The notes under the pieces: generated by a model
The model's input: the letters and a program-made list of their open reading frames with translations, nothing else
Told to the model about the DNA's origin: nothing
Databases searched by the model: none
Shown: piece by piece, positions 10,319 through 27,147 of the stretch
Position numbering within the stretch: the first letter of the stretch is position 1
Layout: the number at the start of each line of letters is the position of its first letter
Origin: Thermoproteota archaeon
GTDB taxonomy: Archaea > Thermoproteota > Nitrososphaeria > Nitrososphaerales > Nitrosopumilaceae
Length of the DNA stretch: 32,000 nucleotides
Reading direction: 5' to 3'
NCBI GenBank assembly: GCA_003352285.1
Contig: QQVN01000005.1
Location: 316,380-348,379, forward strand
Position numbers and translations under genes: made by a program

Positions 10319-10406
10319 GTTAATTTCACCCTAACTTATCCTATTTAAATCCATCCTGTAGTCTGAAATCCTTCAAAGATCGCATGGCTTTAGAAAAATG
10401 TGTAAG

Positions 10407-10480
10407 TGGACTGAAGGGGATTTGAACCCCTGACCCCCCGCGTGCAAGGCGGGTATACTACCAGTCTATACTATCAGCCC
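10407..10480 (-). tRNA. tRNA-Ala (anticodon UGC)
   Basis: The cloverleaf was folded by hand. The acceptor GGGCTGA/TCAGTCC contains the G3:U70 alanine identity pair. The anticodon loop is CTTGCAC and the T-arm is AGGGG-TTCAAAT-CCCCT. Length is 74 nt and CCA is not encoded. Confidence 0.9.
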
Positions 10481-10564
10481 ACGGGAATCATGAAATTCGT
10501 GTTGATTTTAATTGTTGTCTTATTGGCCGGTAAAGATTTTATTTGCTCAAAAGGGGTTTTTTGT

Positions 10565-11119
10565 ATGGTACTTTTAGAGTCGCAAATTAAATTAAAAACT
10601 GGTGATAAGATTCCAGATTTCTCTCTAAAAGGAATTGACGATAAAATTCATTCAGTAAGTGACTACAAAGACTATGATGGCAAGTTAATTATTTTCATGT
10701 GTAATCATTGCCCATATGTTAAAGCAAAAGTTGAGGCAATAAAGGAGATTCATGAAAAGTTTAGTGACAAGGTGGCAGTAGTTGGCATCAACAGTAATGA
10801 CCCCATAGCCTTTCCAGATGATAATTTTGAAAACATGAAAAAGACTGCTTCAGAAAAGGGTATCAAATTTGACTATTTGGTAGATGACACACAAGAGGTA
10901 GCAAAAAGATTTGGGGCAATGTGCACACCAGACCCATTCCTATTTGACAAAAACGGAAATCTTGTTTTCCATGGAAGAATTGACAACGCAATGAAGCCAG
11001 AAGATGTAGCTACTGAAAAGACCATGATTGATAACATTACCAAATTACTAAATCAAGAAAAAATCCAAAAGGACTTTGATCCTTCAATTGGTTGTTCAAT
11101 AAAGTGGAAGGAAAATTAA
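10565..11119 (+). CDS. thioredoxin-fold thiol-disulfide oxidoreductase (AhpC/TSA-redoxin family)
   Basis: From the ATG at 10565 the protein reads MVLLESQIKLKTGDKIPDFSLKGIDDK..LIIFMCNHCPYV (CxxC) ..GINSND..PDPFLFD. The ORF-track start at 10442 would overlap tRNA-Ala and was rejected. Confidence 0.8.
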   Translation: MVLLESQIKLKTGDKIPDFSLKGIDDKIHSVSDYKDYDGKLIIFMCNHCPYVKAKVEAIKEIHEKFSDKVAVVGINSNDPIAFPDDNFENMKKTASEKGIKFDYLVDDTQEVAKRFGAMCTPDPFLFDKNGNLVFHGRIDNAMKPEDVATEKTMIDNITKLLNQEKIQKDFDPSIGCSIKWKEN

Positions 11120-11152: not shown

Positions 11153-11240
11153 GGGCTCGTAGCTCAGCTTGGCTGGAGCGTTCGACTGATAAGATTTCTC
11201 AGAGATCGAAAGGTCATGTGTTCGAATCACATCGGGCCCA
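11153..11240 (+). tRNA. tRNA-Ile (anticodon GAU) with a 13-nt intron at the canonical 37/38 position
   Basis: The acceptor is GGGCTCG/CGGGCCC and the D-arm is GCTC..GAGC. The anticodon stem TTCGA/TCGAA is interrupted, and the loop CTGATA-[agatttctcagag, 11192..11204]-A restores a 7-nt loop. The T-arm is ATGTG-TTCGAAT-CACAT. Confidence 0.85.
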
Positions 11241-12862: not shown

Positions 12863-12936
12863 GCTTCGATAGCTCAGCCTGGTAGAGCGTTACCTTGGTA
12901 AGGTAAAGGTCGCGGGTTCGGATCCCGCTCGGAGCT
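12863..12936 (+). tRNA. tRNA-Thr (anticodon GGU)
   Basis: The acceptor is GCTTCGA/TCGGAGC and the D-arm is GCTC-AGCCTGGTA-GAGC. The anticodon stem-loop is TTACC-TTGGTAA-GGTAA and the T-arm is GCGGG-TTCGGAT-CCCGC. Length is 74 nt. Confidence 0.9.
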
Positions 12937-13812
12937 CTAATAATTTTTGATTAACAGTTCCAGATGGCCTGTTCTCTTTTTAGAGTTTGAATTGATTGCA
13001 CGATTAGCTGCTATTGCAATTGTCTTCCAAGGTTTTTTTGAAAACATCTTTTTGACTTCTGGTGAATATGAGTTAGATAAGAGAACGTAACATCCTTTTG
13101 CATCCAATTCCAAGCATATCTCAAATAGTCGTTTTAGGTCTTTTACACTAAAGTCCTTGTTTGTATAGCTTGTAAAATTAGCAGTTTTACTAACTGGCTG
13201 ATATGGAGGATCAAAATATACAAAGTCATTTTTTTGTGCCAATTTAGAAACAGAGGTAAAGTCACGACAACTAATTGAAACCTTCTTTGATTGTAAGGTG
13301 TGGCTTACTGAGTTAAGATTATCCTCATTTACGATGTTTGGGTTTGTGTATCGTCCTAGTGGAACATTGAATTTTCCTTTACTGTTAACCCGATAGAGTC
13401 CGTTAAAGCAGGTTCTATTAAGAAATATCAATCTGGCCGTCTTTTCAACTTGGGTCTTTGGCTCACTATCTCTAATAGAATAGTAATAGGAGCTAGAATC
13501 CTCAGAGTATTTTTTTTCATGTTTTTTTAGACAGGAGATTAGTTCGCTTACTTTATCACGAATTGTCACATAGGAAAGAACCAGGTCAGAGTTTAGATCA
13601 GAAACTACACATGCTTGTTTTTGATTCTTCTCAAGCATATGAAATAGCATTGCACCACCTCCCAAAAATGGCTCAAAATATGTGCCAAAAGCATCTGGTA
13701 TGTGTTTGTCAAGTTCAGATAATAGCTGTCTTTTCCCACCAGCCCATTTTACAAATGGTTTTGGAGAATCATGAATCTGATCATATTGCTGTGCCAATAT
13801 GATATGATTCAA
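12937..13812 (-). CDS. dam: DNA adenine methyltransferase (Dam / D12-class N6-adenine MTase)
   Basis: PFVKWAGGKRQLL, FEPFLGGGA (AdoMet motif I) and FVYFDPPY (DPPY catalytic motif IV) are in the Dam-family order. The stop codon directly abuts tRNA-Thr. Confidence 0.88.
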   Translation of the reverse strand: MNHIILAQQYDQIHDSPKPFVKWAGGKRQLLSELDKHIPDAFGTYFEPFLGGGAMLFHMLEKNQKQACVVSDLNSDLVLSYVTIRDKVSELISCLKKHEKKYSEDSSSYYYSIRDSEPKTQVEKTARLIFLNRTCFNGLYRVNSKGKFNVPLGRYTNPNIVNEDNLNSVSHTLQSKKVSISCRDFTSVSKLAQKNDFVYFDPPYQPVSKTANFTSYTNKDFSVKDLKRLFEICLELDAKGCYVLLSNSYSPEVKKMFSKKPWKTIAIAANRAINSNSKKRTGHLELLIKNY

Positions 13813-13941: not shown

Positions 13942-14592
13942 TTAGTCCCACTTGGACCAAGCGGCCATCCATCTATAAGTCCACGTTGTTAATTTACATC
14001 CCAACGCAGCCATAGTTACAGACAACACTGCACCAGCACCTGCTCCCAGTGCTACTGGGCTGTTATAGAATTTACCTACTTGAGGTTCTATGGGTGTCAT
14101 GTATGGTGGTAATGTTGGTCTTGGATATTTGAAGGCCGTTTCTAGTGGGTCAGCTACCGTAATCAAGTTGACCATGTTGAACAATGGTAGAGACATTCCT
14201 ACCAGTACACCGCCGAACAGTATCAGTGAGTGTTTGTTTCTCTTTGTTGCCCAATAAGCCAAGTCCATCAACATTGCTGATGGTAGCCAAACTGGTGTAA
14301 CAATGAAGTCGTATGGATATCCGAGTGCAAACCATGCACCTTTTGCAATCCACGTGTATACTGTCATAATCAACGCATAATACGTTGCTGTTCCAGGAAC
14401 GCCTGTAAATGTTAGGTAATATGCTGCACCTACTACAAGCATTAACGTTTGAGATATTGAGAATACTACAAACGATGTCCAGGCCCAGTCAGTGTAGAAG
14501 ATATAGTCTCCTGCATTAATTGTTAACAAAGTCGAGTTAACCGCAACTACTACTATGAATAAGTAGTGGGTACATCGTCTTAGCCAGACCAT
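13942..14592 (-). CDS. amoA: ammonia monooxygenase subunit A (archaeal)
   Basis: 216 aa: MVWLRRCTHYLFIVVVAVNSTLLTINAGDYIFYTDWAWTSF..PLETAFKYPRPTLPPYMTPIEPQVGKFYNSPVALGAG.. This is unmistakably archaeal AmoA of the Nitrosopumilus type. Confidence 0.98.
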   Translation of the reverse strand: MVWLRRCTHYLFIVVVAVNSTLLTINAGDYIFYTDWAWTSFVVFSISQTLMLVVGAAYYLTFTGVPGTATYYALIMTVYTWIAKGAWFALGYPYDFIVTPVWLPSAMLMDLAYWATKRNKHSLILFGGVLVGMSLPLFNMVNLITVADPLETAFKYPRPTLPPYMTPIEPQVGKFYNSPVALGAGAGAVLSVTMAALGCKLTTWTYRWMAAWSKWD

Positions 14593-14615
14593 TATCAGGT
14601 AGAAGATAGGGTTGG

Positions 14616-14624
14616 TATATAAAA
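14616..14624 (-). promoter_or_regulatory. TATA box of amoA (ttttatata on the minus strand)
   Basis: It lies 24-32 nt upstream of the amoA ATG (14592). This spacing implies a leaderless or very short-leader mRNA. Confidence 0.55.
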
Positions 14625-14671
14625 TTTTAGACTGGTATGATGATCGTCTTTATCTAGAAAATGAAAAAGAG

Positions 14672-14689
14672 AAAAAAGTCCAATGGACT
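14672..14689 (-). terminator. hairpin plus T6 downstream of amoX
   Basis: On the minus strand the sequence is agtc-cattg-gact followed by tttttt, starting about 9 nt after the amoX stop. Confidence 0.45.
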
Positions 14690-14697
14690 GTATCTCA

Positions 14698-15060
14698 CTA
14701 TACACCGACGTATAGAGAAATAAACACAGTTCCTACTGCAGTACCAGCAAGTGTAGCGGCGATGATTCCGTTGCTATTCTTTCTAGAACCTTCTTCCATG
14801 ACTTTAACACAGAAGAGATAACCAATCGCCTCGATGATTGTGAGTACGATGAAAGCATAGTGTCCGCTTGGTGTTGGATATGCCCATGGATAATAGAAGT
14901 ATCCAGCTGCTGTTCCACCAAATGTTGCTAGCCATGCTGCAATGTATGATATTGTTATCAGGCCGGTCATGTTTTCAACTCGTCTGCCAATCATCTTTTC
15001 GACGTCAGCAGAACCAGTGCCACCTGAGCCACCTGAACCAAATCCTTTCGGAAGAGTCAT
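14698..15060 (-). CDS. amoX: AmoX (conserved small membrane protein between amoA and amoC in ammonia-oxidising archaea)
   Basis: 120 aa with a Gly/Ser-rich N-terminus (GFGSGGSGGTGS) and hydrophobic helices (ITISYIAAWLATFGG; YAFIVLTIIEAIGYLF; IIAATLAGTAVGTVFISLYV). Its position between amoA and amoC matches the known AOA synteny. Confidence 0.85.
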   Translation of the reverse strand: MTLPKGFGSGGSGGTGSADVEKMIGRRVENMTGLITISYIAAWLATFGGTAAGYFYYPWAYPTPSGHYAFIVLTIIEAIGYLFCVKVMEEGSRKNSNGIIAATLAGTAVGTVFISLYVGV

Positions 15061-15144
15061 TTGCGTTTATACTATGCAGAATACTTTTAAGTCTTTCTTA
15101 AAGGACGAAAAAGACTCGATCTAAGTTATAGTTAAAATATAAAG

Positions 15145-15162
15145 AAAAAAGTGCTTTCGCAC
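15145..15162 (-). terminator. amoC terminator: GNRA-capped hairpin gtgc-gaaa-gcac followed by T6
   Basis: On the minus strand the sequence after the stop reads TAG acaaaaac GTGC GAAA GCAC TTTTTT c. Confidence 0.55.
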
Positions 15163-15170
15163 GTTTTTGT

Positions 15171-15734
15171 CTATGGGATTGATCTGCTGTACAGTTTGCC
15201 TTCTAGGGCCATCTTGTACATTTCAGCAACATATGGATTTTCACCTGGTGTTTCTGCACCGAGTTCGACAAGTCTAGCATAGACTCTGACCACGTATGCA
15301 AGTGCGCCCATAAAGGCGACTACTACACCCATGTTAAACATCCAATGGTTTGGTACTGCAAAGATTTCTTCTACAAACCAAAAGTGCCACATCTCATTTA
15401 CTCCAATGGTAAACATGGTTGCCAAGTAACCTAGAATGGTCATCTTAAGACCAGTATTCATAGAGTTATTTGGACCTCTTAGAATTGGTACTTTTCTATC
15501 ATAGATTGCAACTGAACCCCATCCAAGTGGTAGAGCCACGAAGTGGGAGTATAGCCACCAGTGTGCTGGTGTAAATGCACTATCTCTAATAGAGGTTTGA
15601 TGTAAAGATCCATCAACGAAGTTATCTACTTCGACAGATGCTGCAGTAGAACCCATAGCGATGACGATAAGCCAGATTTTCTTTAGTCTCTGGATTTCGA
15701 CTTCTTTTGGGATTAATGCGGGCATTTGTGCCAT
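15171..15734 (-). CDS. amoC: ammonia monooxygenase subunit C (archaeal)
   Basis: From the ATG at 15734 the protein reads MAQMPALIPKEVEIQRLKKIW..HWWLYSHFVALPLGWG..NEMWHFWFVEE..PNHWMFN.. A TATA-like ctttatatt lies 23-31 nt upstream. The 46-codon extension in the ORF track runs through the promoter and was rejected. Confidence 0.95.
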   Translation of the reverse strand: MAQMPALIPKEVEIQRLKKIWLIVIAMGSTAASVEVDNFVDGSLHQTSIRDSAFTPAHWWLYSHFVALPLGWGSVAIYDRKVPILRGPNNSMNTGLKMTILGYLATMFTIGVNEMWHFWFVEEIFAVPNHWMFNMGVVVAFMGALAYVVRVYARLVELGAETPGENPYVAEMYKMALEGKLYSRSIP

Positions 15735-15756
15735 AGGTACAGTGTGTTGCCATCTG

Positions 15757-15765
15757 AATATAAAG
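15757..15765 (-). promoter_or_regulatory. TATA box of amoC (ctttatatt on the minus strand)
   Basis: It lies 23-31 nt upstream of the ATG at 15734, which supports the shorter amoC start. Confidence 0.5.
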
Positions 15766-15888
15766 TAAGAGTTCCAATTCTGAGTTTTTTTGTAAATTTC
15801 TTTCATTAAATTATGACTAAAACTTGTAATTTTCTGTAATTTTACAATAAAAAAATATAGAAATAATATCAATTTAGAAATGAATTTG

Positions 15889-15912
15889 AATGATAATCAT
15901 CAATGATAATCA
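15889..15912. repeat. tandem direct repeat aatgataatca (2 copies, 13-nt period) in the amoC/amoB divergent intergenic region
   Basis: The copies at 15889..15899 and 15902..15912 are identical and separated by tc. Confidence 0.8.
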
Positions 15913-15995
15913 ATAAAACTATTCTTAGATCTCTCACATTAAGGTAAAACATATAACGACGTATGTTACCTCACTGAGTAATTAACGGGATAACT

Positions 15996-16565
15996 ATGGT
16001 CGATAAAAAACTAATTGTAGTCGGACTCAGCGTCGTTTTAGCACTGGGAACCGTTGGATTCAACTGGGTTGAATCTATCCTTCCAACAGCTGAAGCACAC
16101 GGAGTTCAAGCACAACTGCAGAGTCGTTTCGTTAGAATTGAAGATGAAACCTTCAATCGACAATCTCTACAAACCGGAGAGACACTAACTGTACAAGGTA
16201 AGTTAGTCAGCCTCGTAGAAAGAGACCTTAGAGGATGGATTTCAATATTCTCTGAATCAACCAATGCTGGAAACAGATGGGAGATTCTAGCAAGAGATCC
16301 ACCAGGTAACGTCTTTGATATGTCTGGCAACTCAGTTACAGATTATGCAATCTCCGCAAAAGCACTTGAGCCAGGTGTATACCATGTACACACTCAGCTT
16401 AACGTAGCTCAAGTAGGTCCAGGACTTGGTCCAGGACAAACAGTAGTAGTCGAGGGAGAACCAATCATCAAAGAAATTCCATACACCAACATTGCATATC
16501 AATCAATCATCATTGGTGTTGGATATGTAATCACATTCGCGACACGACCCTGGCAAGTTATCTAA
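15996..16565 (+). CDS. amoB: ammonia monooxygenase subunit B (archaeal, short form)
   Basis: 189 aa. The signal peptide ends ..PTAEA|HGVQ, so the mature N-terminus is a His. YHVHTQL supplies an HxH pair, the ligand set known from the PmoB/AmoB copper site. There is a C-terminal TM helix (IIIGVGYVITFA). Confidence 0.95.
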   Translation: MVDKKLIVVGLSVVLALGTVGFNWVESILPTAEAHGVQAQLQSRFVRIEDETFNRQSLQTGETLTVQGKLVSLVERDLRGWISIFSESTNAGNRWEILARDPPGNVFDMSGNSVTDYAISAKALEPGVYHVHTQLNVAQVGPGLGPGQTVVVEGEPIIKEIPYTNIAYQSIIIGVGYVITFATRPWQVI

Positions 16566-16593
16566 AATCCCTTCTTTCCTTTTCCTTTTCTAG
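16566..16593 (+). terminator. pyrimidine/oligo-T tract directly after the amoB stop (cccttctttccttttccttttc)
   Basis: It contains the 15-mer ttccttttccttttc (16576..16590), identical to the minus-strand sequence at 13917..13931 after amoA. Confidence 0.5.
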
Positions 16594-16633
16594 TACATCA
16601 TAGATTTATCTATCCAAGTCTCATTTTGAAAAA

Positions 16634-16948
16634 GTGACCAGTTTCAAAATTACAAAATTAGACATGCATCAGAGTTATTTTGTTGGTAAGGTAGAATCAG
16701 CAGGAAAAGAATTCAGCATAAATGTTCAGGATCAAAGAAGAGGCAAAGTGCTCAAAATGCCAATTAAACCATACTCAAAAAAACACCGATTTTTAGTCAG
16801 ATTTACAGGGAAAGAAGATATCTTTGTTGAGGACTATCTGCCATACATTGGAGAATCGGAATGGCTTGAGATTGACTCTGATGAGATAGTATTTGCACTT
16901 GCAGATAAACAGGATGAATTTGACACAATAGAAATTGTAGATGAATAG
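16634..16948 (+). CDS. hypothetical acidic cytoplasmic protein (104 aa)
   Basis: The ORF lies immediately downstream of amoB on the same strand. It starts with GTG; an internal ATG (MHQSYF..) is possible. No motif recognised. Confidence 0.45.
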   Translation: MTSFKITKLDMHQSYFVGKVESAGKEFSINVQDQRRGKVLKMPIKPYSKKHRFLVRFTGKEDIFVEDYLPYIGESEWLEIDSDEIVFALADKQDEFDTIEIVDE

Positions 16949-16990
16949 AATCATAGAAACGACTTTAAAGAATTTCAAGAGAGATAAGAC

Positions 16991-17521
16991 ATGATTTGGC
17001 CAGGGATGGGAGATCCCACAAAGCGGAAAAAAACACTCAAGTTTTTGGGTTTGACAGCAGCCATTGGAATGTCGGTTTTTTTGGCAGGCAGTCTCATTCA
17101 AGGTCAGCTTAGTCAAGGCGACCCGCTAAAGGCATGCATCAATGACAGAAATACACCATACAAGATCAAGGCAACCTTAGAGCTTTATGTTGATAAACAG
17201 AAAGCAGACATTCCTGCAAATATTGGCTTTGTTGAGGGAGAATGTCAAAGGTCGCTTTATACAATTACAGATGATGGAACAATTTATGCAGAGTGGGAAG
17301 AAGAGTACCCATTTGAGATTGGTCATTTTCTATGGTCATGGGACTTTCCGTTAAGAGATATGGAACAGTCAAAATCAAGAATTCTAGTTAACGGTGTAGA
17401 ATCACCAAACTTCATTCACTCCCCGTTAGTTGAAGGATATCACTACAGAGCAGAGTTCACATCAAAGGCATATGATGAATCAAAAGACAAGGACTTTTTG
17501 CCACCCGAGTTACAACCATAA
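16991..17521 (+). CDS. hypothetical N-terminally membrane-anchored protein (176 aa)
   Basis: It has a basic N-terminus followed by the TM helix LKFLGLTAAIGMSVFLAGSLI, then a Cys-containing soluble domain predicted to face outside. Confidence 0.6.
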   Translation: MIWPGMGDPTKRKKTLKFLGLTAAIGMSVFLAGSLIQGQLSQGDPLKACINDRNTPYKIKATLELYVDKQKADIPANIGFVEGECQRSLYTITDDGTIYAEWEEEYPFEIGHFLWSWDFPLRDMEQSKSRILVNGVESPNFIHSPLVEGYHYRAEFTSKAYDESKDKDFLPPELQP

Positions 17522-17586
17522 ATCTGAATTCTATAGAATCATCTAAGTCCGATTTTAAAAATAATGAAAAGAAGAAAAAGGTAATT

Positions 17587-17856
17587 TTACCAATACTTGC
17601 CGTTATCTGGAATTAGACCGATACCTTCTCTTTCAAAGTGTCTATCCAATTCGTCGACCCATCTCTCACGGTTGTCTTTGTATCCCCATCCGTGAACACG
17701 TAACCAGAAGGAAACGATAGCCAGAAGGAATATCGTAAACATTATGGTTCCGAAGATGTAAATCATAACGTCATAGAACAATGGGTCATAGTTAGGTCCC
17801 AGTTGTCCTGTTATTGTTGACAAGATACTGAGGAATGTGCCCAATATAGGAGTCAT
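17587..17856 (-). CDS. small integral membrane protein (89 aa), candidate AMO-associated subunit
   Basis: It has a strong TM helix (VMIYIFGTIMFTIFLLAIVSFWL), a weaker N-terminal hydrophobic segment and a charged C-terminal tail. A T-rich tract follows the stop. Confidence 0.6.
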   Translation of the reverse strand: MTPILGTFLSILSTITGQLGPNYDPLFYDVMIYIFGTIMFTIFLLAIVSFWLRVHGWGYKDNRERWVDELDRHFEREGIGLIPDNGKYW

Positions 17857-17967
17857 TGAATATCGAACGATATTTCTGCGATATATACATTTCCTTCATT
17901 CTCAAAAAGGACGAGATCAGCACATGATATAGAAAAATCTAATAAAATAAGAGAAAAGAGGTTTTGT

Positions 17968-18297
17968 TTATCCTCTACCTTGAGCGGCGTATTTACCAGA
18001 TCTTCCTCTAATGAATAGAGCGCCTGCAATGCCACCAAATACTGCTGCAGAAATTGCAGAAGCACCAATTACACCGCTAGCATCAAGATATGGAGTTCCT
18101 GAACCGCTGGCAGGGTTTTCCTGTACTGCCTCGATTCTTCTTCTTTGAATCTCGAGGGCTTCTTCTAAAGTGTATTTTCCAGTTTGTCCTTCGTCTCCAA
18201 CATTACCCATGTATTGAGCATAAGCAACGCCAGTCATTCCCATGCTGCCGAAGGCAATTACTGCCAAAACACTTGCGAATAGTATTGTCTTAGTCAT
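17968..18297 (-). CDS. small type-I membrane protein (109 aa): signal peptide plus C-terminal TM anchor, candidate AMO-associated subunit
   Basis: The signal peptide is MTKTILFASVLAVIAFGSMGMTGVAYA|Q. It is followed by a helical soluble segment and the C-terminal helix GVIGASAISAAVFGGIAGALFI with a basic tail RGRSGKY. Confidence 0.6.
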   Translation of the reverse strand: MTKTILFASVLAVIAFGSMGMTGVAYAQYMGNVGDEGQTGKYTLEEALEIQRRRIEAVQENPASGSGTPYLDASGVIGASAISAAVFGGIAGALFIRGRSGKYAAQGRG

Positions 18298-18423: not shown

Positions 18424-18873
18424 ATGGGACGACTACACACTCACAGACACGGAAGATCTCACTCTATCAGACCGGTAACTGTAAGAGCGCCATCTTGGAT
18501 TACTCAGAGCTCAAAAGAGGTTGAAGAGTTAGTTGTCAAGTATGCAAAAGAAGGACTCTCCCCAAGTCAGATAGGCATTAAGCTTCGCGATCAGTATTCT
18601 ATTCCATTAACAAAACCAATCACTCAAAAATCTGTAACAAAAATTCTGGAGGAAAACAAGATGCTTCCAGAACTTCCTGAAGACTTGAACAATATTGTTA
18701 ACAAGGCAGTAGGATTACAAAAACACCTCAAAGCAAACAAAGGAGATCACAGAAACGTTAGATCATTAGAGTTAATCGAAGCCAAAGTTCACAGGCTGGC
18801 AACTTATTACAAAAGAATAGGTCGAATTCCCAAAAACTGGAAATATAAATCCGTGGTAGCTCAGTTAGAGTAA
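18424..18873 (+). CDS. rps15: 30S ribosomal protein S15 (uS15, archaeal S15P/S13e)
   Basis: MGRLHTHRHGRSHSIRP.. and the C-terminal ..HRNVRSLELIEAKVHRLATYYKR.. are typical of archaeal uS15. Confidence 0.93.
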   Translation: MGRLHTHRHGRSHSIRPVTVRAPSWITQSSKEVEELVVKYAKEGLSPSQIGIKLRDQYSIPLTKPITQKSVTKILEENKMLPELPEDLNNIVNKAVGLQKHLKANKGDHRNVRSLELIEAKVHRLATYYKRIGRIPKNWKYKSVVAQLE

Positions 18874-20273
18874 TGGGAAAAAGCCTAAGCGAATCATTAT
18901 CTAGTTTTACCGATAAAATTTCAGATTGCATTAAAACAAACAAATCAATCGTTGTTACTACCCACATAGATTGTGACGGATTAACATCAGGAAGTATTAT
19001 CACTAAAGCCCTCATCAGAGCAGGAGTCAAATGTACAGTTAGAACCTCAAATGAGTTTAGTCAAAATGTTATTTCTGGAATGCAAAAAGATTCTAGAGAT
19101 TTTCACATTGTAACAGACCTTGGAGGAGGATTTGCAGATGAGCTTGATGCAGCATTAAATGATAATTGGTTTGTTATTGATCATCATCAAATTTCTGATG
19201 AAGAGATGGACAATGAACGAGTGATTAACGCATGGAAGTACGGCATAGATGGAGGAGTAGAGATTTGTGCAGGAGGAATGACTTACTTGGCTTCCATGGC
19301 TCTTGATGAGAAAAACTCAGATCTTGCAGGAGTGGCAGTGGTTTCAGCTTTGGGAGACAGACAGGATCAGGGAGAGAAAAAATCTTTCATAGGAAAAAAC
19401 TCTGAGATTGTAAAAGCAGCCAAAGAACAAGGTTTGGTAGATGTGGACTTGGATTTGTTACTTGTTGGTAGAGAGACAAGGCCATTGCCTGATGCCTTGG
19501 CATTTACCTCACAGCCATTTATTGAAGGACTTACTTGGAATAGAGATGCCTGCTTATCATTACTAAATTCATCAGGAATTAAACTCAAAGAAGGTGGAAG
19601 ATGGAGAGTTCCTGCAGAATTATCAGAAGATGAAAAAAGAGCAGTAATAGAATCAATTACAAAATTCACGTCAGGAAAGAATGCAACTGATATCATGGAG
19701 GAATTGATTGGATATACCTACACTTTTCCTAGAGAAGACAAGATGAGTTTTTTGAGAGATGGTAGAGACTTTTCAACAATGCTGAATTCATGTGGAAGGA
19801 TTAGCAAGGCAGGTGTCGGAATAGCCATTTGCATGGGAGATCGAAACAGGATGCTAAGAGAGGGCGAAACTATTCTAACAGAGTATCGAAAGATGATAAG
19901 AAATTACATGAATGTTTTAGCCAATGAAAGATGGAGAATTTCTGAAAGTCAGTCATGTGTCATGGTCAATGGAGAAGGCATAGTACCAGAAACAATGACA
20001 GGTACAATCTCATCGCTAATTGCAGGTTCTCCAAAGAATGCTGGAAAGATAGTCATTTTGAGAACAAATGGAGAAGAGGGCACGATAAAATTCTCTTCTA
20101 GAAAATCTATGGGTTGCAAATCAGAAGTAAATCTAAGCTTACTCATGAGAAATGGTGCAGAAAAATTTGACGGAGTAGGTGGAGGACATGATGCAGCAGC
20201 AGGTGCAAAAATAACTAAAGACAAATTGGATGGATTTTTGGATTATTTGGAATCAAATGTCATTAACGTGTAG
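18873..20273 (+). CDS. DHH/DHHA1 phosphoesterase, archaeal RecJ-like nuclease
   Basis: The DHH motifs are VVTTHIDCDGLTSG, DLGGG and VIDHHQ. The DHHA1 motif is GGGHDAAAGA. The ATG overlaps the S15 stop (TAATG). Confidence 0.8.
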   Translation: MGKSLSESLSSFTDKISDCIKTNKSIVVTTHIDCDGLTSGSIITKALIRAGVKCTVRTSNEFSQNVISGMQKDSRDFHIVTDLGGGFADELDAALNDNWFVIDHHQISDEEMDNERVINAWKYGIDGGVEICAGGMTYLASMALDEKNSDLAGVAVVSALGDRQDQGEKKSFIGKNSEIVKAAKEQGLVDVDLDLLLVGRETRPLPDALAFTSQPFIEGLTWNRDACLSLLNSSGIKLKEGGRWRVPAELSEDEKRAVIESITKFTSGKNATDIMEELIGYTYTFPREDKMSFLRDGRDFSTMLNSCGRISKAGVGIAICMGDRNRMLREGETILTEYRKMIRNYMNVLANERWRISESQSCVMVNGEGIVPETMTGTISSLIAGSPKNAGKIVILRTNGEEGTIKFSSRKSMGCKSEVNLSLLMRNGAEKFDGVGGGHDAAAGAKITKDKLDGFLDYLESNVINV

Positions 20274-20499
20274 ATTACAGATAACTCTGGATAATATTTC
20301 AGCCCAAAAGGCAGAGGCAATCAAAAAGGCTTTAGAGCCAGACAATGTAGATTTTCCAGAAAACTTGACTCTAAAAATTGAAAATGTTGATAACAAACTT
20401 GTTTTTGATTTCCAAAGTCAGAATAACATGAAAAGTATGATTGCCTCTGTCGATGAAGTTTTAGAGCATGTTCAAGTGATTCTCAAAGTGATAGAGTGA
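20257..20499 (+). CDS. pcc1: KEOPS complex subunit Pcc1-like protein
   Basis: About 80 aa: LQITLDNISAQKAEAIKKALEPDNVDFPENLTLKIENVDNKLVFDFQSQNNMKSMIASVDEVLEHVQV. This fits the Pcc1/CTAG pattern as I remember it. The start is ambiguous (20230 or 20257) and the ORF overlaps the upstream gene. Confidence 0.6.
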   Translation: MSLTCRLQITLDNISAQKAEAIKKALEPDNVDFPENLTLKIENVDNKLVFDFQSQNNMKSMIASVDEVLEHVQVILKVIE

Positions 20500-21761
20500 T
20501 GCTAGACCCAAAATTTATCAGAGAAAATGTAGAAGAAATTCGCTCGATGCTAGAAGCCCGTTGTGTGAATTTTGATCTAGAAAAATTATTAGATTCAGAT
20601 CAGAAACGGCGTGATTTCATAATCAAAACTGATGAGCTGCGACAAAAGAAAAACCAAGTTGCATTACAAATAGCTCAAAAGAAAAAGTCAGGAGAGGATG
20701 CATCAGAAATCCTCAATGAGATGAAGACAGTTTCTGAAAAACTTGCAAAATTGGAGATGGAGCAAAATGAGATAGAAAGGGATTTTGCCAAACTCGCATA
20801 TACTATTCCAAATTTAATTCACGAGTCAGTACCTAAAGGAAAAGATGAAACTGCAAATAAAGAAATCAGAGCTTGGGGAAACCCGCCAAAATTTGATTTT
20901 AAAATTCATGACCATATTGATATTTCAGCAGACTTGGATCTTGTGGATTTGGAGAGAGCTGCAAAGGTAGCAGGGGCCAGATTCTATTATTTGAAAAATG
21001 ATCTAGTGAGATTAAATCAAGCATTGATAAATTACGCATTGGATTTTCTTAACAAGAAAAACTATTCGCTAATTCAGCCACCATATATGATAAAAAAAGA
21101 ATCAATGGAAGGCGCAGTAATCTCTGAGGACTTTGAGGAAGTAATATACAAAATTCAAGATGAAGACCTATACCTTATAGGTACATCAGAGCACGCGATG
21201 GCTGCAATGCACTCAGGGGAGATCATGGATGGAAATACTTTACCAATCAGATATGCTGGAGTCAGTCCATGTTTTAGAAAAGAAGCAGGAGCACATGGAA
21301 GAGATCAGAAAGGAATTTTCCGAGTTCATCAATTTGAAAAGATTGAACAATTTGTATTTGCAAGACCAGAAGATTCATGGAAAGAGCATGAACGAATGTT
21401 ATCTATTGCAGAAGAATTTTACCAAAGTTTAGAAATTCCACATAGAGTTATGTTGCTTTCAAGTGCAGATATGGGAAAAGTTTCAGCAAAGACATATGAT
21501 ATTGAAGCTTGGATGGCAGGACAAAATTCATTTCGAGAGATCGTATCTTGCTCTAATTGTCTAGATTATCAAGCAAGACGTCTAAAGATAAGATTTCGAG
21601 ATAAAACCAATGAGGACACACAATTTCTTCATACACTAAATAGTACGTTAGTGGCAACCTCTCGAGTTTTAGTTTCTTTATTGGAAAATTTCCAAACAAA
21701 AGATGGACATGTTTCCATTCCAAAAATTTTAAGAAATTATATCGGCAAAGATTCAATTTAA
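20499..21761 (+). CDS. serS: serine--tRNA ligase
   Basis: MLDPKFIRENVEEIRSMLEAR is followed by the coiled-coil arm. The class II motifs include RFYYLKND, GTSEH, FRKEAG..GRD..GIFRVHQF and NSTLVATSR. An alternative GTG at 20496 is 1 codon upstream. Confidence 0.93.
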   Translation: MLDPKFIRENVEEIRSMLEARCVNFDLEKLLDSDQKRRDFIIKTDELRQKKNQVALQIAQKKKSGEDASEILNEMKTVSEKLAKLEMEQNEIERDFAKLAYTIPNLIHESVPKGKDETANKEIRAWGNPPKFDFKIHDHIDISADLDLVDLERAAKVAGARFYYLKNDLVRLNQALINYALDFLNKKNYSLIQPPYMIKKESMEGAVISEDFEEVIYKIQDEDLYLIGTSEHAMAAMHSGEIMDGNTLPIRYAGVSPCFRKEAGAHGRDQKGIFRVHQFEKIEQFVFARPEDSWKEHERMLSIAEEFYQSLEIPHRVMLLSSADMGKVSAKTYDIEAWMAGQNSFREIVSCSNCLDYQARRLKIRFRDKTNEDTQFLHTLNSTLVATSRVLVSLLENFQTKDGHVSIPKILRNYIGKDSI

Positions 21762-21802
21762 TAACATACCCTTATATTTTGGATTCAAAGGTCGGTTACT
21801 AA

Positions 21803-22414
21803 TTGGCACGAAGAAAGACTAAGGTTAAGGACAAATGGAGAGAGAAAAAATGGATTACAGTATTAGCTCCAGATTCATTTAACAATGTTCCAGTAGCCTA
21901 TGTTCCTATTACTGATGAGGAAAATGCTGTTGGCAGAGTCTTTGAAGTTACATTATTTGATATTCTAAAGGGAGATCCATCACAACACCAATACAAGATG
22001 TATTTCCAGTTACACAAAATTCAAGATGATAAAGCAACAACTATCTTCAAAAGATACGAGTATGCAAAAGAATTTTTACGAAGTCTTGTTAGACGAGGCT
22101 CCTCAAAAATCAATTTCATTATTGATGCAAAGACCAAAGACGGACATGTTTTCAGATTAAAGGTTTTAGCATTAACACACAGACAGTTAAACACATCTAG
22201 AAAACATGCTTTAAGATTGATTGCAAAGGATGTAATAGAAAAGACAGTACCTCAAATGACAATAGACCAATTTGTTCAAGCAACATGTTATGGAAAGATT
22301 AATTCTGATATTATGGCAGCAGCAAAGAAGCTAATCAGAATGAGACATGTTGGACTAGAAAAAGTCAAACTTGTAAGAACTGCCGAAAAGGAAGTAGCAT
22401 TACTTCAAGCCTAA
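21803..22414 (+). CDS. rps3ae: 30S ribosomal protein S3Ae (eS1)
   Basis: It starts with TTG and reads ARRKTKVKDKWREKKWITVLAPDSFN.., the hallmark eS1 N-terminus. Confidence 0.9.
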   Translation: MARRKTKVKDKWREKKWITVLAPDSFNNVPVAYVPITDEENAVGRVFEVTLFDILKGDPSQHQYKMYFQLHKIQDDKATTIFKRYEYAKEFLRSLVRRGSSKINFIIDAKTKDGHVFRLKVLALTHRQLNTSRKHALRLIAKDVIEKTVPQMTIDQFVQATCYGKINSDIMAAAKKLIRMRHVGLEKVKLVRTAEKEVALLQA

Positions 22415-22439
22415 ATATTAAAAAACATCCTACTTAGAG

Positions 22440-22868
22440 ATGGGAAACAAAACTGAAGTTACTATTGATGTAATTATTCACGCAACTGAGGACATGGTAA
22501 AATTTCAGGAAACTTTTCAAGATGTCTTTTCTATAACTCCAGAGGAGTTTTCTACTCAGATTGTTTCAGGGCATTATGATAATCCAATTACTATCATGAC
22601 TACAAAAATTGTTAAAGAACAGGCAATGGGTTTTGTTGAAACCCTTACTTCAATGATGAGTAAAGAACAGATGGATGAGATCATTTCAAATCTTGATTCC
22701 ATGATTGATAATTCTACACTTTATTTGAGAATCAGCAAACAAGATTTTGTGGAAAATAAAATTACGTTTCAAGAGGAGAATGCAATAAAGATAAAAATTT
22801 ACACTCCAATCTATTCGAAAAAAAATACTATCAAAGCATTTACCGATTTGCTCAAAAAATCCATCTAG
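22440..22868 (+). CDS. putative RNA-binding protein of the predicted-exosome-subunit family (COG1325-like)
   Basis: TIDVIIHATEDMVKFQETF matches the hATED pattern I remember at the N-terminus of this family, and the protein is 142 aa. The assignment is from memory only. Confidence 0.5.
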   Translation: MGNKTEVTIDVIIHATEDMVKFQETFQDVFSITPEEFSTQIVSGHYDNPITIMTTKIVKEQAMGFVETLTSMMSKEQMDEIISNLDSMIDNSTLYLRISKQDFVENKITFQEENAIKIKIYTPIYSKKNTIKAFTDLLKKSI

Positions 22869-23009
22869 ATTAAATAGGAAATCACACTTTCTATTTTTTG
22901 GGAATGAGGAAATAACAGCCGCTCCAGTCTGAGCAGCGCAAGCTTTGAAGATGCCGCGACGAACCGACCCAATTATAGATCCTTAAAATCAAGATTGTTT
23001 TAAATACCG

Positions 23010-24485
23010 ATGAACGAGGGGATGTTTGTGGCCGATTATGATGTCATTATAGCTGGAGGAGGATTAGCAGGAACAATTGCTGCACAATCAGTATCTCACT
23101 ATTCTAAACAAGGACTAAAAATTCTAGTTGTTGACAGAAACTCTAGTTTTCTACCAGGTAGAAAAAGTGTAGGAGGATGGATTTGTGGTGATGCAGTAAG
23201 CAAAGAAGCTGTAGACTACATGTCAGAAAGAATCAAGGTGAATTGGACGGATCCTGAGATTGAACACAAAGTAAAAGGAGTCATGGCATTTTCTCCTAAC
23301 AGAGAAACATCAATTCCTTTTGATGGGGACGGTTACATGCTAAATCGTCAAAAACTCCCAGAAAGGCAAAACGAGCGTTCCATGAAAATGGGAATTAACT
23401 TTGATTTTGAGATTAATCTTACAGGTCTAATTTATGATGGAAGTCAAGTAGTTGGCGTTCAAGGAGTGGATAATAAAAATAAGCAGCCTTACAAAAAAAC
23501 TGCAAAGATAGTGATTGATGCAACTGGAATTACATCAATGCTAAGAAATCAAATTCAAAACACAACTAAAATTGAAAGAAAGGTAGACAGAAGAGATGTG
23601 GAATCCACAGGCAGGCACATCATGTATTTTGAAAATGGTGAAGAAGACCTATCTGAATTTGACCCAGATTATTGTATCATACATTTAGACCAAGATATCG
23701 CACCAGGTGGATATGGTTGGGTATTTCCAAAAGGCAAAAACAAAGTAAACATCGGTCTAGGTGTTGAAAAAACTCTTCTTGATAAACGAAATAAGCGCTT
23801 AGGAAAAAACGATAACGTATCAATGTTGATTGATCAATATGTAGCACGAAACAGAGCTATCAAAAATCCCAAGCTTTCAACTGATCCAGAAGATAAGAAT
23901 AATGCAACTGGAAATTTCCAGGTGTCAGTTAGAAGACAAAACGACTGCCTAGTAGCTAATGGATACATGTTGGTTGGAGATGCTGCATGGATGCCAAAAC
24001 CATTAGATGCCGGAGGAATTGGTCCTGCACTAGTAGCTGGCACAATTATTGGAAAATGTGCTGTAGAGGCAATTCAAAAAGGAGACGTTACAGAAAAAGG
24101 ACTGTGGAATTACAATAAAGAATTCATCAACGAATATGGATACAAAACTGCAGGTCTTGAGGTATTTAGAAGATTAATTCAGACATTAACAAATGAACAG
24201 ATTGACTATGGAATGAAACACTTTTTGGGAAACTTGGATGTTGAAGCAATTTCCAAAGGGGAGCACCCAGACTTTAGTGCACTTGGGAAACTTGGAATGA
24301 TTATCAGAGGAGCACTAAACAAAAAATTAGCCGACGGCCTAAGATTTACTACACAGCAAAACAGATGGTTAACAGAACATTATTACAATTATCCAGATTC
24401 GCCTGAAGGATTTGCAGATTGGAGTCAAAAATTACACAAAGTTCTTGATGAATCTAATGCCAAACTAGAACAATTTCAAAACTAA
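23010..24485 (+). CDS. geranylgeranyl reductase-family FAD-dependent oxidoreductase
   Basis: It has the dinucleotide fold YDVIIAGGGLAGTIAA, WICGDAV (the conserved Cys), APGGYGWVFPKG and LVGDAAWMPKPLDAGGIGPAL. At 491 aa it is longer than typical GGRs and carries an extra C-terminal helical region. Confidence 0.8.
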   Translation: MNEGMFVADYDVIIAGGGLAGTIAAQSVSHYSKQGLKILVVDRNSSFLPGRKSVGGWICGDAVSKEAVDYMSERIKVNWTDPEIEHKVKGVMAFSPNRETSIPFDGDGYMLNRQKLPERQNERSMKMGINFDFEINLTGLIYDGSQVVGVQGVDNKNKQPYKKTAKIVIDATGITSMLRNQIQNTTKIERKVDRRDVESTGRHIMYFENGEEDLSEFDPDYCIIHLDQDIAPGGYGWVFPKGKNKVNIGLGVEKTLLDKRNKRLGKNDNVSMLIDQYVARNRAIKNPKLSTDPEDKNNATGNFQVSVRRQNDCLVANGYMLVGDAAWMPKPLDAGGIGPALVAGTIIGKCAVEAIQKGDVTEKGLWNYNKEFINEYGYKTAGLEVFRRLIQTLTNEQIDYGMKHFLGNLDVEAISKGEHPDFSALGKLGMIIRGALNKKLADGLRFTTQQNRWLTEHYYNYPDSPEGFADWSQKLHKVLDESNAKLEQFQN

Positions 24486-24519
24486 GACTTATTTGTAAAT
24501 TAAAAATTCTATCTTGTAG

Positions 24520-25317
24520 ATGCTACAAGAAGCAAGTTACTTAGATTGGAATGATTCTTTTAAAATTTTGAACAAGGCTTACGAATCTGGATTGTTTGTT
24601 TTAATTATTGGTCCAAAAGGAACAGGAAAGACTACTCTGGTAAGGGATTTTGCAAAGAGCAAATCAGTCCCATTAGAATCAATTAACTTTAGCCTTAGAA
24701 CAAGAGAAAGCCATTTGGTGGGAACAAAAACACTCAATGATGGATCAATAGGATTTGATGAGGGAATACTAATCAAGTCAATGAGGGAAGGAAACATACT
24801 ATATCTTGATGAGCTAAATTCTGCAGAAGCAGATGTTCTTTTGAGATTAGATGAAGCCTTGGATGATAGACGACAAATTGTGCTAAAGGAATCCACAGGA
24901 GAAGTTGTCAATGCAAAGGAAGGGTGGTTTGTTGTAGCTACAATTAATCCCTTAACTCATGTTGGAACAAAGGAACTTCCACCTCAACTGCTTAGTAGAT
25001 TTCCAGTGAGAATAAGACTAGAATATCCTCCAGAGGAAATTGAACTAGAAATAATAAAAAAATATGTCTCAGCATCACATCAAGATTCCTTAAAGCAGGG
25101 AATAAAATTGGCAAATACATTACGACAAGCAGCTGCAGTTGAAGAATTGTATTATTCTCCAAGTTTGAGAGAGAGTATTGCATTTGGGAAGATGCTAGAT
25201 TCTGGAGTAGCCCCAAAAGAAGCTGCAAACATTGTTTTTGGTAACGTGTATGCTCAATGGGGAAATGTGGAATATCAAAAAGTAAGCGACATCATTACCT
25301 CCATGTTTGGTAATTAG
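24520..25317 (+). CDS. AAA+ ATPase of the MoxR class, CbbQ/NorQ-like (AAA_5)
   Basis: Walker A is GPKGTGKT and Walker B is ILYLDELN. ATINP and LLSRF are also present. The 265-aa size is typical of CbbQ/NorQ. Confidence 0.8.
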   Translation: MLQEASYLDWNDSFKILNKAYESGLFVLIIGPKGTGKTTLVRDFAKSKSVPLESINFSLRTRESHLVGTKTLNDGSIGFDEGILIKSMREGNILYLDELNSAEADVLLRLDEALDDRRQIVLKESTGEVVNAKEGWFVVATINPLTHVGTKELPPQLLSRFPVRIRLEYPPEEIELEIIKKYVSASHQDSLKQGIKLANTLRQAAAVEELYYSPSLRESIAFGKMLDSGVAPKEAANIVFGNVYAQWGNVEYQKVSDIITSMFGN

Positions 25318-26883
25318 ATGCAATCATTACAAATTAGAAATGATTCTCTTGTTGAGATAGCAACCTTTCTAGCAAGACGGTGGTCTGAAAAAGAAAACAT
25401 CACAGTAGAATTTTCAGACAAAAGTGAAACAAAGACCCTGCTAAGAGAAAGTCGAATTATCTTAGTACCATTTGAGAAATTAAGTGGAGATGATTTTCAA
25501 AGATATAGGCAATTTAGAACTGCTCTTTGGTATGAATCAATGAGAGTGAAATTATGTAAGAAGATTCTCAGCAACGATCATGCGTTTGGGTTTATTCTCA
25601 ATACAATTGAAACAAGAAGGATTGAGCTTTTAGGAAGAAAGATTTGGAAAGGAATGGATGAAGAATTAATCTTCAATTATGCCTTCATGTGGAATTACAG
25701 ACCCATGTTAAACACAGTATATGGAAAAGCAAGAATGGTAGAAGCACTCTATCAATACTTTTTATTTGGTGATGTAAAAGGAGAAATTCAACCTAGTCAT
25801 CTTGAGAGAATTAAGAAAGCCTCTTCATACGCGTCTGAAATTCTACAATATTCAATTAAAAATGATCTCGATACAAATTGGTTAGAAACAAAAATTCCTG
25901 AAATAATAAAAATTCTCGATATTGATTCATTGATGACTATACCAGTTGCATTACCATGGATAAAACCAGGAATGGCCCTTACAGAAGAGGAATTACTAAA
26001 AGCTTTGATCAAAGTTTCAAAAAATCGGGAAAGTGATTTTGGAAAAATTGATCACGAGGCTGCATTTCGTGGAAAAAATATTTTTGAGGAATACAAAGTT
26101 CTCTTGGAAGAAAATAAAAAAAATCAAAATAAAGGATTAGGTACAGAAACGATTGGAGTCAAGATCCCATCCCAAACAAATGTTGATGAAACAACAATCT
26201 ATGATTTGGATTTAATTAATAATCTAAAAATTCGATTCAAAGATTGGAAATCTGGTTGGAAAGAACAGCATCTAAAAACAGGTGATGAGTTTGATGAAGA
26301 AACATACATTGAGGGGCATGAGCCATTTTTTACTGATCAAAAAAAGGTAATAAAAACAAAAATTGTAATTTTGTTGGATCATTCATCAAGTATTTCCTCT
26401 CAACAATTAGAATACAAAAAGGCAACCTTAGCTTTATGTGAAGTATTATCATATTTGAAAATTAATTTTTCTGTTTATGCATTTAGTACTGTGGATAAAG
26501 CGGTGATGTGTTGGTTAGTAAAACCTGATAATATGAAGTGGAATAATATATGCGCAAAACGCCTTACTCAAATTATTGCAAATGGTGGAACTCCACTTGC
26601 CGAAGTGTATGATAAAATGTATTCTGTATTACAATCCAAAAGACCAAATGTTTTTTTGACTTTAACTGATGGAGAGCCGTCAGATCCTAATGCAGTCCGT
26701 TCCATGATTAAATCATTCAAATCAATGGGAATCAAGATGGTTGCACTAGGATTAGGTCCAAACACCGTTGGTGCAACAATTATTGCAAGCAATCTCAAGC
26801 GCTTGGGTTATGAAAGAACTTTGGCAGTCAGTAGATTAAACGATATTCCAAATAGAGTTCTTTCTGTTTTACAGGAGCAATAA
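25318..26883 (+). CDS. von Willebrand factor A domain protein, NorD/CbbO-like partner of the upstream ATPase
   Basis: The C-terminal VWA domain has a complete MIDAS: ILLDHSSS (DxSxS), ANGGTPLAE and LTDGEPSD. Its ATG directly follows the ATPase stop (TAGATG). Confidence 0.8.
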   Translation: MQSLQIRNDSLVEIATFLARRWSEKENITVEFSDKSETKTLLRESRIILVPFEKLSGDDFQRYRQFRTALWYESMRVKLCKKILSNDHAFGFILNTIETRRIELLGRKIWKGMDEELIFNYAFMWNYRPMLNTVYGKARMVEALYQYFLFGDVKGEIQPSHLERIKKASSYASEILQYSIKNDLDTNWLETKIPEIIKILDIDSLMTIPVALPWIKPGMALTEEELLKALIKVSKNRESDFGKIDHEAAFRGKNIFEEYKVLLEENKKNQNKGLGTETIGVKIPSQTNVDETTIYDLDLINNLKIRFKDWKSGWKEQHLKTGDEFDEETYIEGHEPFFTDQKKVIKTKIVILLDHSSSISSQQLEYKKATLALCEVLSYLKINFSVYAFSTVDKAVMCWLVKPDNMKWNNICAKRLTQIIANGGTPLAEVYDKMYSVLQSKRPNVFLTLTDGEPSDPNAVRSMIKSFKSMGIKMVALGLGPNTVGATIIASNLKRLGYERTLAVSRLNDIPNRVLSVLQEQ

Positions 26884-26957
26884 TTTTTTATCAAAACTCT
26901 TAGCTTGTGAAAAAAAACCATATCTAGATATTTATTGAAGGGATCTAAAGTCACCAC

Positions 26958-27095
26958 ATGGGACTATTCAACAGGAACAAGAATTTGGAATTAGCAACTG
27001 TATGTAAGATATGCGGAATGGAATTTTCAGATTCTGAAAGAACACTCAGACATATGGTAAAGGCTCATTCAAAGCCTCGTAAGAGTAAAGGTTAG
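26958..27095 (+). CDS. 45-aa C2H2-type zinc-finger miniprotein
   Basis: My translation is MGLFNRNKNLELATVCKICGMEFSDSERTLRHMVKAHSKPRKSKG. The spacing C-x2-C-x12-H-x4-H matches the classical C2H2 finger. The ORF is below the ORF-track cutoff. Confidence 0.5.
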   Translation: MGLFNRNKNLELATVCKICGMEFSDSERTLRHMVKAHSKPRKSKG

Positions 27096-27147
27096 AAGAA
27101 TTTTCAATTAAGTAAGTTCTAAATTTAGCTAGAAATGGAGGTTTTTC

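Follow-up and report, generated by a model that had tools for sequence, protein, structure and literature searches.

The segment from 13942 to 18297 of the window analysed here (the whole 32,000-nucleotide stretch of contig QQVN01000005.1) encodes, with a probability of about 0.85, a complete cluster of ammonia monooxygenase (AMO) genes from an archaeon resembling Nitrosopumilus sp. b1, among them those for AmoY, AmoZ, an AmoE-type protein and a counterpart of Nmar_1504. The genes lie in the order amoA, amoX and amoC (minus strand), amoB, the Nmar_1504-type gene and the amoE-type gene (plus strand), and amoY and amoZ (minus strand). The original prediction had described an extended AMO locus with four uncharacterised small open reading frames (ORFs) behind amoB; all eight ORFs are reproduced in the ORF list at the coordinates and strands it gave. 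The word "uncharacterised" holds only for database annotation, in which the four small ORFs and amoX are all labelled "hypothetical protein", as the literature already describes all four.

Because archaeal AMO drives much of global nitrification, inhibitor design and the reading of metagenomes both benefit from a correct list of its subunits. The content of the cluster is already known, and this locus adds no component: AmoY and AmoZ were described in 2023 (Hodgskiss et al., PMC10030591), and AmoE and Nmar_1504 in a preprint of September 2026 in which the AMO of N. maritimus, in native membranes, was solved by cryo-electron microscopy (cryo-EM) at 2.88 Å (PDB 9XJ2; bioRxiv 10.64898/2026.08.31.748207). 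A review of April 2026 still treated the structure of archaeal AMO as one to be solved. According to the preprint, the cluster encodes AmoA to AmoG plus Nmar_1504, the last of which is not in the complex (bioRxiv 10.64898/2026.08.31.748207). What the present locus contributes concerns where AmoE came from and how widely it occurs, the site and mode of action of the 104-aa protein, and the state of database annotation; the whole subunit set can be recovered from raw sequence despite the "hypothetical protein" labels.

For comparison, a scan with an AmoY profile, one genome per species, returned 555 AmoY-encoding stretches, and the best 80 loci (at least 84% identity) were used. These do not include N. 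maritimus SCM1 or N. viennensis; distant lineages were reached through contigs encoding relatives of the window proteins. The 70-locus set referred to below comprises the species-level Nitrosopumilaceae loci in which amoY lies less than 3 kb from amoB.

The monooxygenase core and AmoX

AmoA, AmoB and AmoC are the copper monooxygenase (CuMMO) core. The predicted arrangement, with amoA, amoX and amoC on the minus strand and amoB divergent, is confirmed by the ORF list and, for amoA, amoC and amoB, by Pfam. The catalytic-core subunit AmoA (13942..14592, minus strand, 216 aa) matches Archaeal_AmoA at E = 1.9e-118 (393 bits, cut-off 25.6) and is 93-97% identical to its counterparts in 53 loci. AmoC (15171..15734, minus strand, 187 aa) matches the Pfam family AmoC at E = 5.7e-13 (49.2 bits, cut-off 26.7), with 94-99% identity across loci. 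Its ORF extends upstream to a TTG at 15872, which had been listed as the start; the ORF itself stands, but we place the start at the conserved ATG at 15734, because a TATA box lies 30 nt upstream and the gene is called at 187 aa in other loci. AmoB (15996..16565, plus strand, 189 aa) consists of a signal or anchor segment, one cupredoxin domain and a C-terminal helix, and is 82-94% identical across loci. It matches Monooxygenase_B (E = 3.6e-7; 30.2 bits, cut-off 22.7) and the crystal structure of an archaeal AmoB (PDB 4O65, E = 7e-46). Against PmoB it aligns in the N-terminal cupredoxin part only (chain residues ~27-178), and the second soluble domain is therefore missing, as had been stated for archaeal AMO in general.

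The amoX gene (14698..15060, minus strand, 120 aa, three hydrophobic helices) lies between amoA and amoC in all loci. Its product is 76-88% identical within the Nitrosopumilaceae and 50% identical to the protein of a 92-aa Nitrosocaldus gene in the equivalent position, as expected of a small membrane protein that is homologous across the ammonia-oxidizing archaea (AOA). The third, C-terminal hydrophobic helix of the window protein (residues 98-120) is not present in the 92-aa Nitrosocaldus AmoX; the preprint likens the third AmoX helix to bacterial AmoD and names AmoX AmoD (bioRxiv 10.64898/2026.08.31.748207).

Neither Pfam nor NCBIfam offers a credible family for the other five genes (amoX, amoY, amoZ and those for the 104-aa and 176-aa proteins), and PDB sequence searches with the four small ORFs and their family profiles gave nothing relevant. 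Weak matches to Agenet (0.13), FixQ (0.52), ETRAMP, uL18 (E = 0.011), an antifreeze-protein repeat and serpin (E = 8e-4) were dismissed as chance.

AmoY and AmoZ

The two small membrane proteins that had been singled out as the best candidates for AmoY/AmoZ-type subunits can both be assigned by homology. The 89-aa protein (amoY, 17587..17856, minus strand; AmoF in the preprint) is identified as an orthologue of the experimentally defined AmoY by its similarity to UniProt A0A2K5APV6 (54% identity, E = 4e-33). This entry is NCAV_0488, listed as AmoY in the proteomics table of Hodgskiss et al. (2023, PMC10030591). In that work AmoY (NVIE_004540, NCAV_0488, Nmar_1506) and AmoZ (NVIE_004550, NCAV_0486, Nmar_1507) were defined through native-gel co-migration, cross-linking, co-expression and synteny, with NCAV_0488 co-migrating with AmoABC on native gels (PMC10030591). 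Physical membership of AmoY in AMO and its co-expression with amoABC have been shown in the literature for N. viennensis, N. cavascurensis and N. maritimus (PMC10030591; bioRxiv 10.64898/2026.08.31.748207).

In build, the window protein agrees with the known AmoY proteins, which are of ~10 kDa, have one helix and are encoded beside amoZ, one or two genes from amoB. It has a mass of 10.5 kDa and a single hydrophobic window at residues 30-48 by hydropathy; of the "polytopic or bitopic" topology proposed earlier, bitopic thus stands and polytopic does not. The motif GQxGPxYDPLFYDV is kept without change from Nitrosocaldus to Nitrosopumilus. Apart from a slightly longer C-terminal tail ending in GKYW in the Nitrosopumilaceae form, we observe no noteworthy difference. 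The gene adjoins amoZ and is linked to amoABCX in the Nitrosopumilaceae. In the N. maritimus row of the published synteny table, amoB is RS08065, amoY RS08080 and amoZ RS08085 (PMC10030591); the tag spacing between the first two corresponds to exactly two intervening genes, the number also present in the window. The 90%-identity cluster of AmoY holds 1521 member sequences, some of which carry misleading database labels ("cbb3-type cytochrome oxidase subunit 3", "MotA/TolQ/ExbB domain").

The 109-aa protein (amoZ, 17968..18297, minus strand; AmoG in the preprint) is, from sequence and architecture, identified as an orthologue of the experimentally defined AmoZ. With Nlim_1898, an amoZ entry of the synteny table (PMC10030591), it shares 76% identity (E = 1.4e-43); with A0A2K5APZ8, which is NCAV_0486, the AmoZ of N. 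cavascurensis (PMC10030591), it shares 32% identity (E = 8e-6) and the architecture. The signal-like N-terminus and C-terminal membrane anchor that had been read from the sequence are both confirmed. The protein has a predicted signal peptide (residues 1-27, cleavage site AYA/Q) and a C-terminal hydrophobic window at ~73-94 by hydropathy, giving a predicted layout of cleavable signal peptide, helical external segment, C-terminal transmembrane helix and basic tail (FIRGRSGKYAAQGRG). It shares the signal peptide, helical external segment and C-terminal helix with the known AmoZ proteins and differs from them in having no cysteine at all; a deletion covers the segment (EECKQLGIPEFAC) in which N. 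cavascurensis AmoZ has its cysteine pair. The disulfide predicted for the soluble AmoZ segment of N. viennensis (PMC10030591), which is not a defining feature of the subunit, therefore cannot form here.

According to the literature, AmoY and AmoZ each span the membrane once, pairing as a clamp between neighbouring protomers that holds the trimer together, with the N-termini outside and the charged C-termini inside.

The AmoE-type protein

The 176-aa protein (16991..17521, plus strand) is, we infer, AmoE (Nmar_1505), an identification reached by elimination and not by alignment. In N. maritimus, AmoE is a single-helix subunit with an external C-terminal domain, described as "of unknown function" and as specific to marine lineages (bioRxiv 10.64898/2026.08.31.748207). 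The window protein matches this description in position and build. Its gene lies between the Nmar_1504-type gene and amoY, and the protein combines a short cytoplasmic tail (MIWPGMGDPxKRKK), one transmembrane helix and an external domain with a Cys49-Cys85 pair. The original prediction, an exported protein with an N-terminal anchor, is borne out by a single hydrophobic segment (residues 18-36); the protein has two cysteines. The AlphaFold2 (AF2) model, with a mean predicted local distance difference test (pLDDT) score of 88.9, shows a long helix (9-41) followed by a folded alpha/beta domain (57-168) with pLDDT above 90. The further suggestion that the protein is an additional AMO partner is supported, in that both fold and position fit the AmoE of the preprint (bioRxiv 10.64898/2026.08.31.748207).

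The gene is a fixed member of the cluster across the Nitrosopumilaceae, lying between amoY and amoB in 70/70 loci. The orthologue in a Nitrosotalea metagenome-assembled genome (MAG; 54% identity, E = 2e-70) is convergent with amoY even though amoB lies 8 kb away, and another Nitrosopumilaceae lineage (L086/L087) has an orthologue of 62% identity. No orthologue was found in the amo locus of Nitrosocaldus. Given the orthologues in Nitrosotalea and L086/L087, the description "specific to marine lineages" is too narrow, as AmoE-type genes extend past the marine lineages. The window type resembles N. maritimus AmoE in cluster position, single helix and C-terminal domain. Nitrosopumilus sp. b1, the closest genome among the loci used, and the "Crenarchaeota archaeon" MAGs of the protein clusters are, we presume from their appearance, lake genomes.

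The name invites comparison with the AmoD and AmoE proteins of ammonia-oxidizing bacteria (PmoD family), which are likewise encoded by accessory genes directly downstream of amoB. We found no sequence relationship between them and the window proteins, and the preprint notes different positions and different topologies for archaeal and bacterial AmoE (bioRxiv 10.64898/2026.08.31.748207).

The 176-aa protein might instead be just a conserved neighbour, an exported protein with a separate job outside AMO. In favour of this, searches of Pfam, NCBIfam and PDB sequences give no match for it, and it diverges more quickly than the core subunits (49-77% identity). It is also absent from Nitrosocaldus, whose AMO was studied on native gels, and was not picked up by Hodgskiss et al. 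(PMC10030591). We give this alternative very little credence, as the gene occupies the same place in every locus of the 70-locus set and stays beside amoY even where the cluster is split, in Nitrosotalea; the N-terminal cytoplasmic tail is strongly conserved; and a cluster-encoded single-helix subunit with a C-terminal domain has been built into the N. maritimus map (bioRxiv 10.64898/2026.08.31.748207).

Histidine-rich relatives of the AmoE-type protein

If the 176-aa protein is taken as AmoE, its relatives suggest where the subunit came from. The closest PDB neighbours of its external domain in Foldseek are beta-grasp proteins: Mth1743 (E = 0.008, probability 0.99), ThiS, SAMP1 and MoaD. An exhaustive HMMER search retrieved 106 relatives. 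The distant ones, for which no Pfam or NCBIfam model was matched, are anchored at the N-terminus, invariably have two cysteines and carry histidine-rich motifs (HIH, HTHD, IHVE), following the pattern C..NH..HIH...IPANIGI..C.RPLHTHD..GTIHVE. The window protein aligns to these histidine-rich members over residues ~20-160 at 21-31% identity (whole-library E = 5e-9 to 3e-4). It shares with them the cysteine pair, the IPANIG motif and a beta-grasp-like C-terminal end (VNG...DG), and differs in that its histidines are lost: six columns in which at least 10 of 14 distant members keep histidine are occupied, in the cluster-encoded AOA form, by D52, K58, K60, Y90, I92 and Y99. A second difference is genomic, the 176-aa gene being in the amo cluster and not beside metal-transport genes.

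Among six neighbourhoods of more distant relatives, three have a P-type ATPase or cupredoxin gene within 5 bp: in two of them the relative is translationally coupled to a heavy-metal P-type ATPase, and in the third its gene adjoins that of a plastocyanin-like cupredoxin. The remaining three contain nothing metal-related. The histidine-rich relatives concerned (L088 2490-6510; L095 2-1905; L094 2092-3274) lie 4-5 bp from, or overlap, heavy-metal P-type ATPase genes and also adjoin HMA-DsbD-cupredoxin or plastocyanin-like genes. Together these features suggest that AmoE arose from an external family that probably handled copper, and that the ligands were lost after its recruitment; with all six conserved histidines gone, its role would most likely be structural, not metal-binding. 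Descent from a copper-linked external family with loss of the histidines thus offers a testable origin for AmoE. One distant relative of the 176-aa protein, P0445 (L084), was considered as amo-linked and is not; it adjoins an AhpC/TSA gene.

The 104-aa protein

The first gene after amoB (16634..16948, plus strand) encodes the counterpart of Nmar_1504, a 104-aa protein that is acidic and soluble, as had been noted from the sequence (pI 4.95, no hydrophobic segment). Its AF2 model (pLDDT 93.4) is a compact barrel of eight strands and one helix, in which the first strand starts at residue 2. In being a soluble, acidic, all-beta barrel protein encoded directly after amoB, it agrees with Nmar_1504. 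A role as an AMO subunit is contradicted by the preprint, which reports that the Nmar_1504 protein is not in the complex (bioRxiv 10.64898/2026.08.31.748207). The gene is present in 64/70 loci and absent in 6/70, and it was not found in Nitrosotalea, the L086 lineage or Nitrosocaldus. Members of the family lack a signal peptide and hydrophobic segments, and none of their histidines, cysteines or methionines is conserved. Since the signal peptide is absent, the protein is predicted to be, and probably is, cytoplasmic.

The preprint reads Nmar_1504 differently, as a detached periplasmic cupredoxin on the outer face of the membrane beside AmoB. The grounds given there are that its structure resembles the C-terminal cupredoxin of N. 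halophila AmoB, that the two surfaces are similarly electronegative, and that the protein and AmoB cupredoxin domains associate in a pull-down (bioRxiv 10.64898/2026.08.31.748207). The place of the gene directly after amoB and the acidic, all-beta character of the product also fit such a protein. We nevertheless regard this reading as unlikely for the window protein. A first strand at residue 2 in a protein with neither signal peptide nor hydrophobic segment speaks against export, and the lack of conserved histidine, cysteine and methionine against a cupredoxin. The resemblance to bacterial AmoB is not reproduced in Foldseek or profile searches: Foldseek against the PDB returns nothing at E<=0.001 (best E = 0.18, TM score 0.33 or lower), its matches are led by OB-fold proteins (RPA, HIN, LysRS), and among the 50 matches listed there is no PmoB or AmoB chain, although the PDB contains entries for both particulate methane monooxygenase (pMMO) and AMO. 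Searching with the family profile yields neither PmoB nor AmoB at E<=10, and hhalign of the family against the archaeal AmoB cupredoxin gives a probability of 0.3%. The absence of the gene from 6/70 loci and from the other lineages named above argues in the same direction. With neither a signal peptide nor a cupredoxin signal in evidence, the preprint's account of Nmar_1504 is open to concrete doubt.

A cytoplasmic protein might nonetheless be linked to AMO, either as AmoH, the cytoplasmic subunit sealing the trimer at its base, or as an assembly or regulatory partner on the basic tails of AmoE, AmoY or AmoZ. The predicted cytoplasmic location would allow this, the strong acidity of the protein would complement the basic AmoZ tail and the KRKK of the AmoE tail, and the gene, having no terminator of its own, is probably co-transcribed with amoE. 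AmoH, moreover, was modelled only as poly-alanine and was not assigned to a gene (bioRxiv 10.64898/2026.08.31.748207). Such a role appears very unlikely: Nmar_1504 is reported not to be in the complex, AmoH is rich in flexible loops as against the compact barrel predicted here (pLDDT 93), and the gene is dispensable in 6/70 loci and absent from other AOA families. We retain the reading of the 104-aa protein as the Nmar_1504 counterpart, encoded in the cluster and, according to the preprint, outside the enzyme.

Several points weigh against the assignments made above. The equation of AmoE with Nmar_1505 was reached by elimination, from a figure legend in the preprint and the spacing of RefSeq tags, and the cryo-EM work is an unreviewed preprint (bioRxiv 10.64898/2026.08.31.748207). 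The similarity of the window AmoZ to the Nitrosocaldus protein is weak, at 32% identity. The beta-grasp-like assignment of the AmoE domain draws on Foldseek E-values of 0.008 or higher, and the copper link of the ancestral family on 3/6 neighbourhoods, a small sample in which two of the six come from intermediate, AOA-type relatives. For the 104-aa protein, the probable cytoplasmic placement follows from the absent signal peptide only and conflicts with the in-vitro pull-down by the external domain of AmoB.

Conservation and selection

The synteny beside amoB, which the original prediction had proposed to compare, holds well: the 176-aa gene is there in all of the 70 loci and both middle genes in 64/70, where the full eight-gene order is kept. 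The other 6/70 carry only the 176-aa gene of the middle pair. All eight genes are under purifying selection, with median ratios of nonsynonymous to synonymous substitution (dN/dS) of 0.03-0.20, values that are approximate because dS is near saturation, and all far below 1. On this rough scale AmoY (0.028; 84-94% identity to the window protein in 80 loci) is constrained like AmoC (0.030) and AmoA (0.042), followed by AmoB (0.063), the 176-aa protein (0.106), AmoX (0.12), the 104-aa protein (0.188; 41-65% identity) and AmoZ (0.196; 56-79% identity).

A few Nitrosopumilaceae genomes (L027, L005, L004, L008, L019, L002) have a rearranged cluster. In L027, amoABCX and the 176-aa gene are both missing within 10 kb of amoYZ; in L005 amoB is missing from the neighbourhood, and amoY is still accompanied by the 176-aa gene.

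Transcription signals

Promoter and terminator signals were assessed from the window sequence and from a comparative count of TATA-like elements and T-runs across loci. The commonest TATA-like position is ~30 nt before the ATG for amoA, amoX, amoC and amoY, which implies that these four transcripts would be leaderless. Upstream of amoC a conserved TTTATAT lies 30 nt before the ATG at 15734. For amoY, the box in the window is at 17881..17888 (minus strand), ~30 nt upstream of the ATG, and across loci the TATA-like element is most often a TATAT at -29 to -32 (32-43 of 76 loci per position). A sigma-70 promoter scan, which found 19 sites against 14.8 expected, is uninformative for an archaeon.

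Behind amoX, amoC and amoY, a T-rich tract is present in 95-100% of loci. The tract after amoB (16570..16592, plus strand), a probable archaeal terminator, has at least two T4 runs in 66/67 loci. That each small membrane gene has its own T-rich terminator, as first noted in the window, is confirmed by conserved tracts behind both stop codons: after amoY (17553..17582, minus strand) a run of at least five T within 60 nt is found in 72/76 loci, and after amoZ (17930..17958, minus strand) at least two T4 runs are found in 73/75. No T-rich tract follows the 104-aa gene in any of 59 loci (0/59), so its transcripts probably read into amoE.

Evolution of the locus and flanking genes

The Nitrosocaldus locus runs SerRS, Pcc1-like, DHH, S15, amoZ, amoY, amoB, amoC, amoX, amoA (SerRS being seryl-tRNA synthetase). 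The window has the same order and flanks, and differs in the two middle genes, which Nitrosocaldus lacks. In the simplest history, amoE would have been inserted between amoY and amoB in the ancestor of the Nitrosopumilaceae, and the 104-aa gene would have been added later, in the Nitrosopumilus/Nitrosarchaeum group.

The flank beside amoZ (18424-21761, plus strand) encodes S15, a DHH phosphoesterase, a Pcc1-like protein and seryl-tRNA synthetase, and is conserved from Nitrosocaldus (L081 3640-7282) to Nitrosopumilus, an unusually stable synteny. On the other side, directly beside amoA, lies a gene for a D12-class (Dam-like) N6-adenine DNA methyltransferase (12937-13812, minus strand; Pfam E = 1.4e-61). 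It is present in most Nitrosopumilaceae loci, on either strand, at 52-73% identity (95% in the near-identical L001), and also in the more distant L086/L087 lineage. Further out on this side are tRNA-Thr (12863-12937, plus strand), tRNA-Ala (10406-10480, minus strand) and an 88-nt tRNA (11153-11240, plus strand) that is recognised by Rfam (54 bits) and unreported by ARAGORN, and which may have an intron or a long arm. An AhpC/TSA (redoxin) gene occupies 10442-11119 (plus strand); with its listed GTG start inside tRNA-Ala, the true start must be further in. The amo-syntenic families reported previously include one of "thiol-disulfide isomerase" type (PMC10030591 supplement). Finally, the cumulative GC skew is flat across the amo region and climbs steadily from ~19 kb (19000-30000 of the window), where nearly all genes are on the plus strand.

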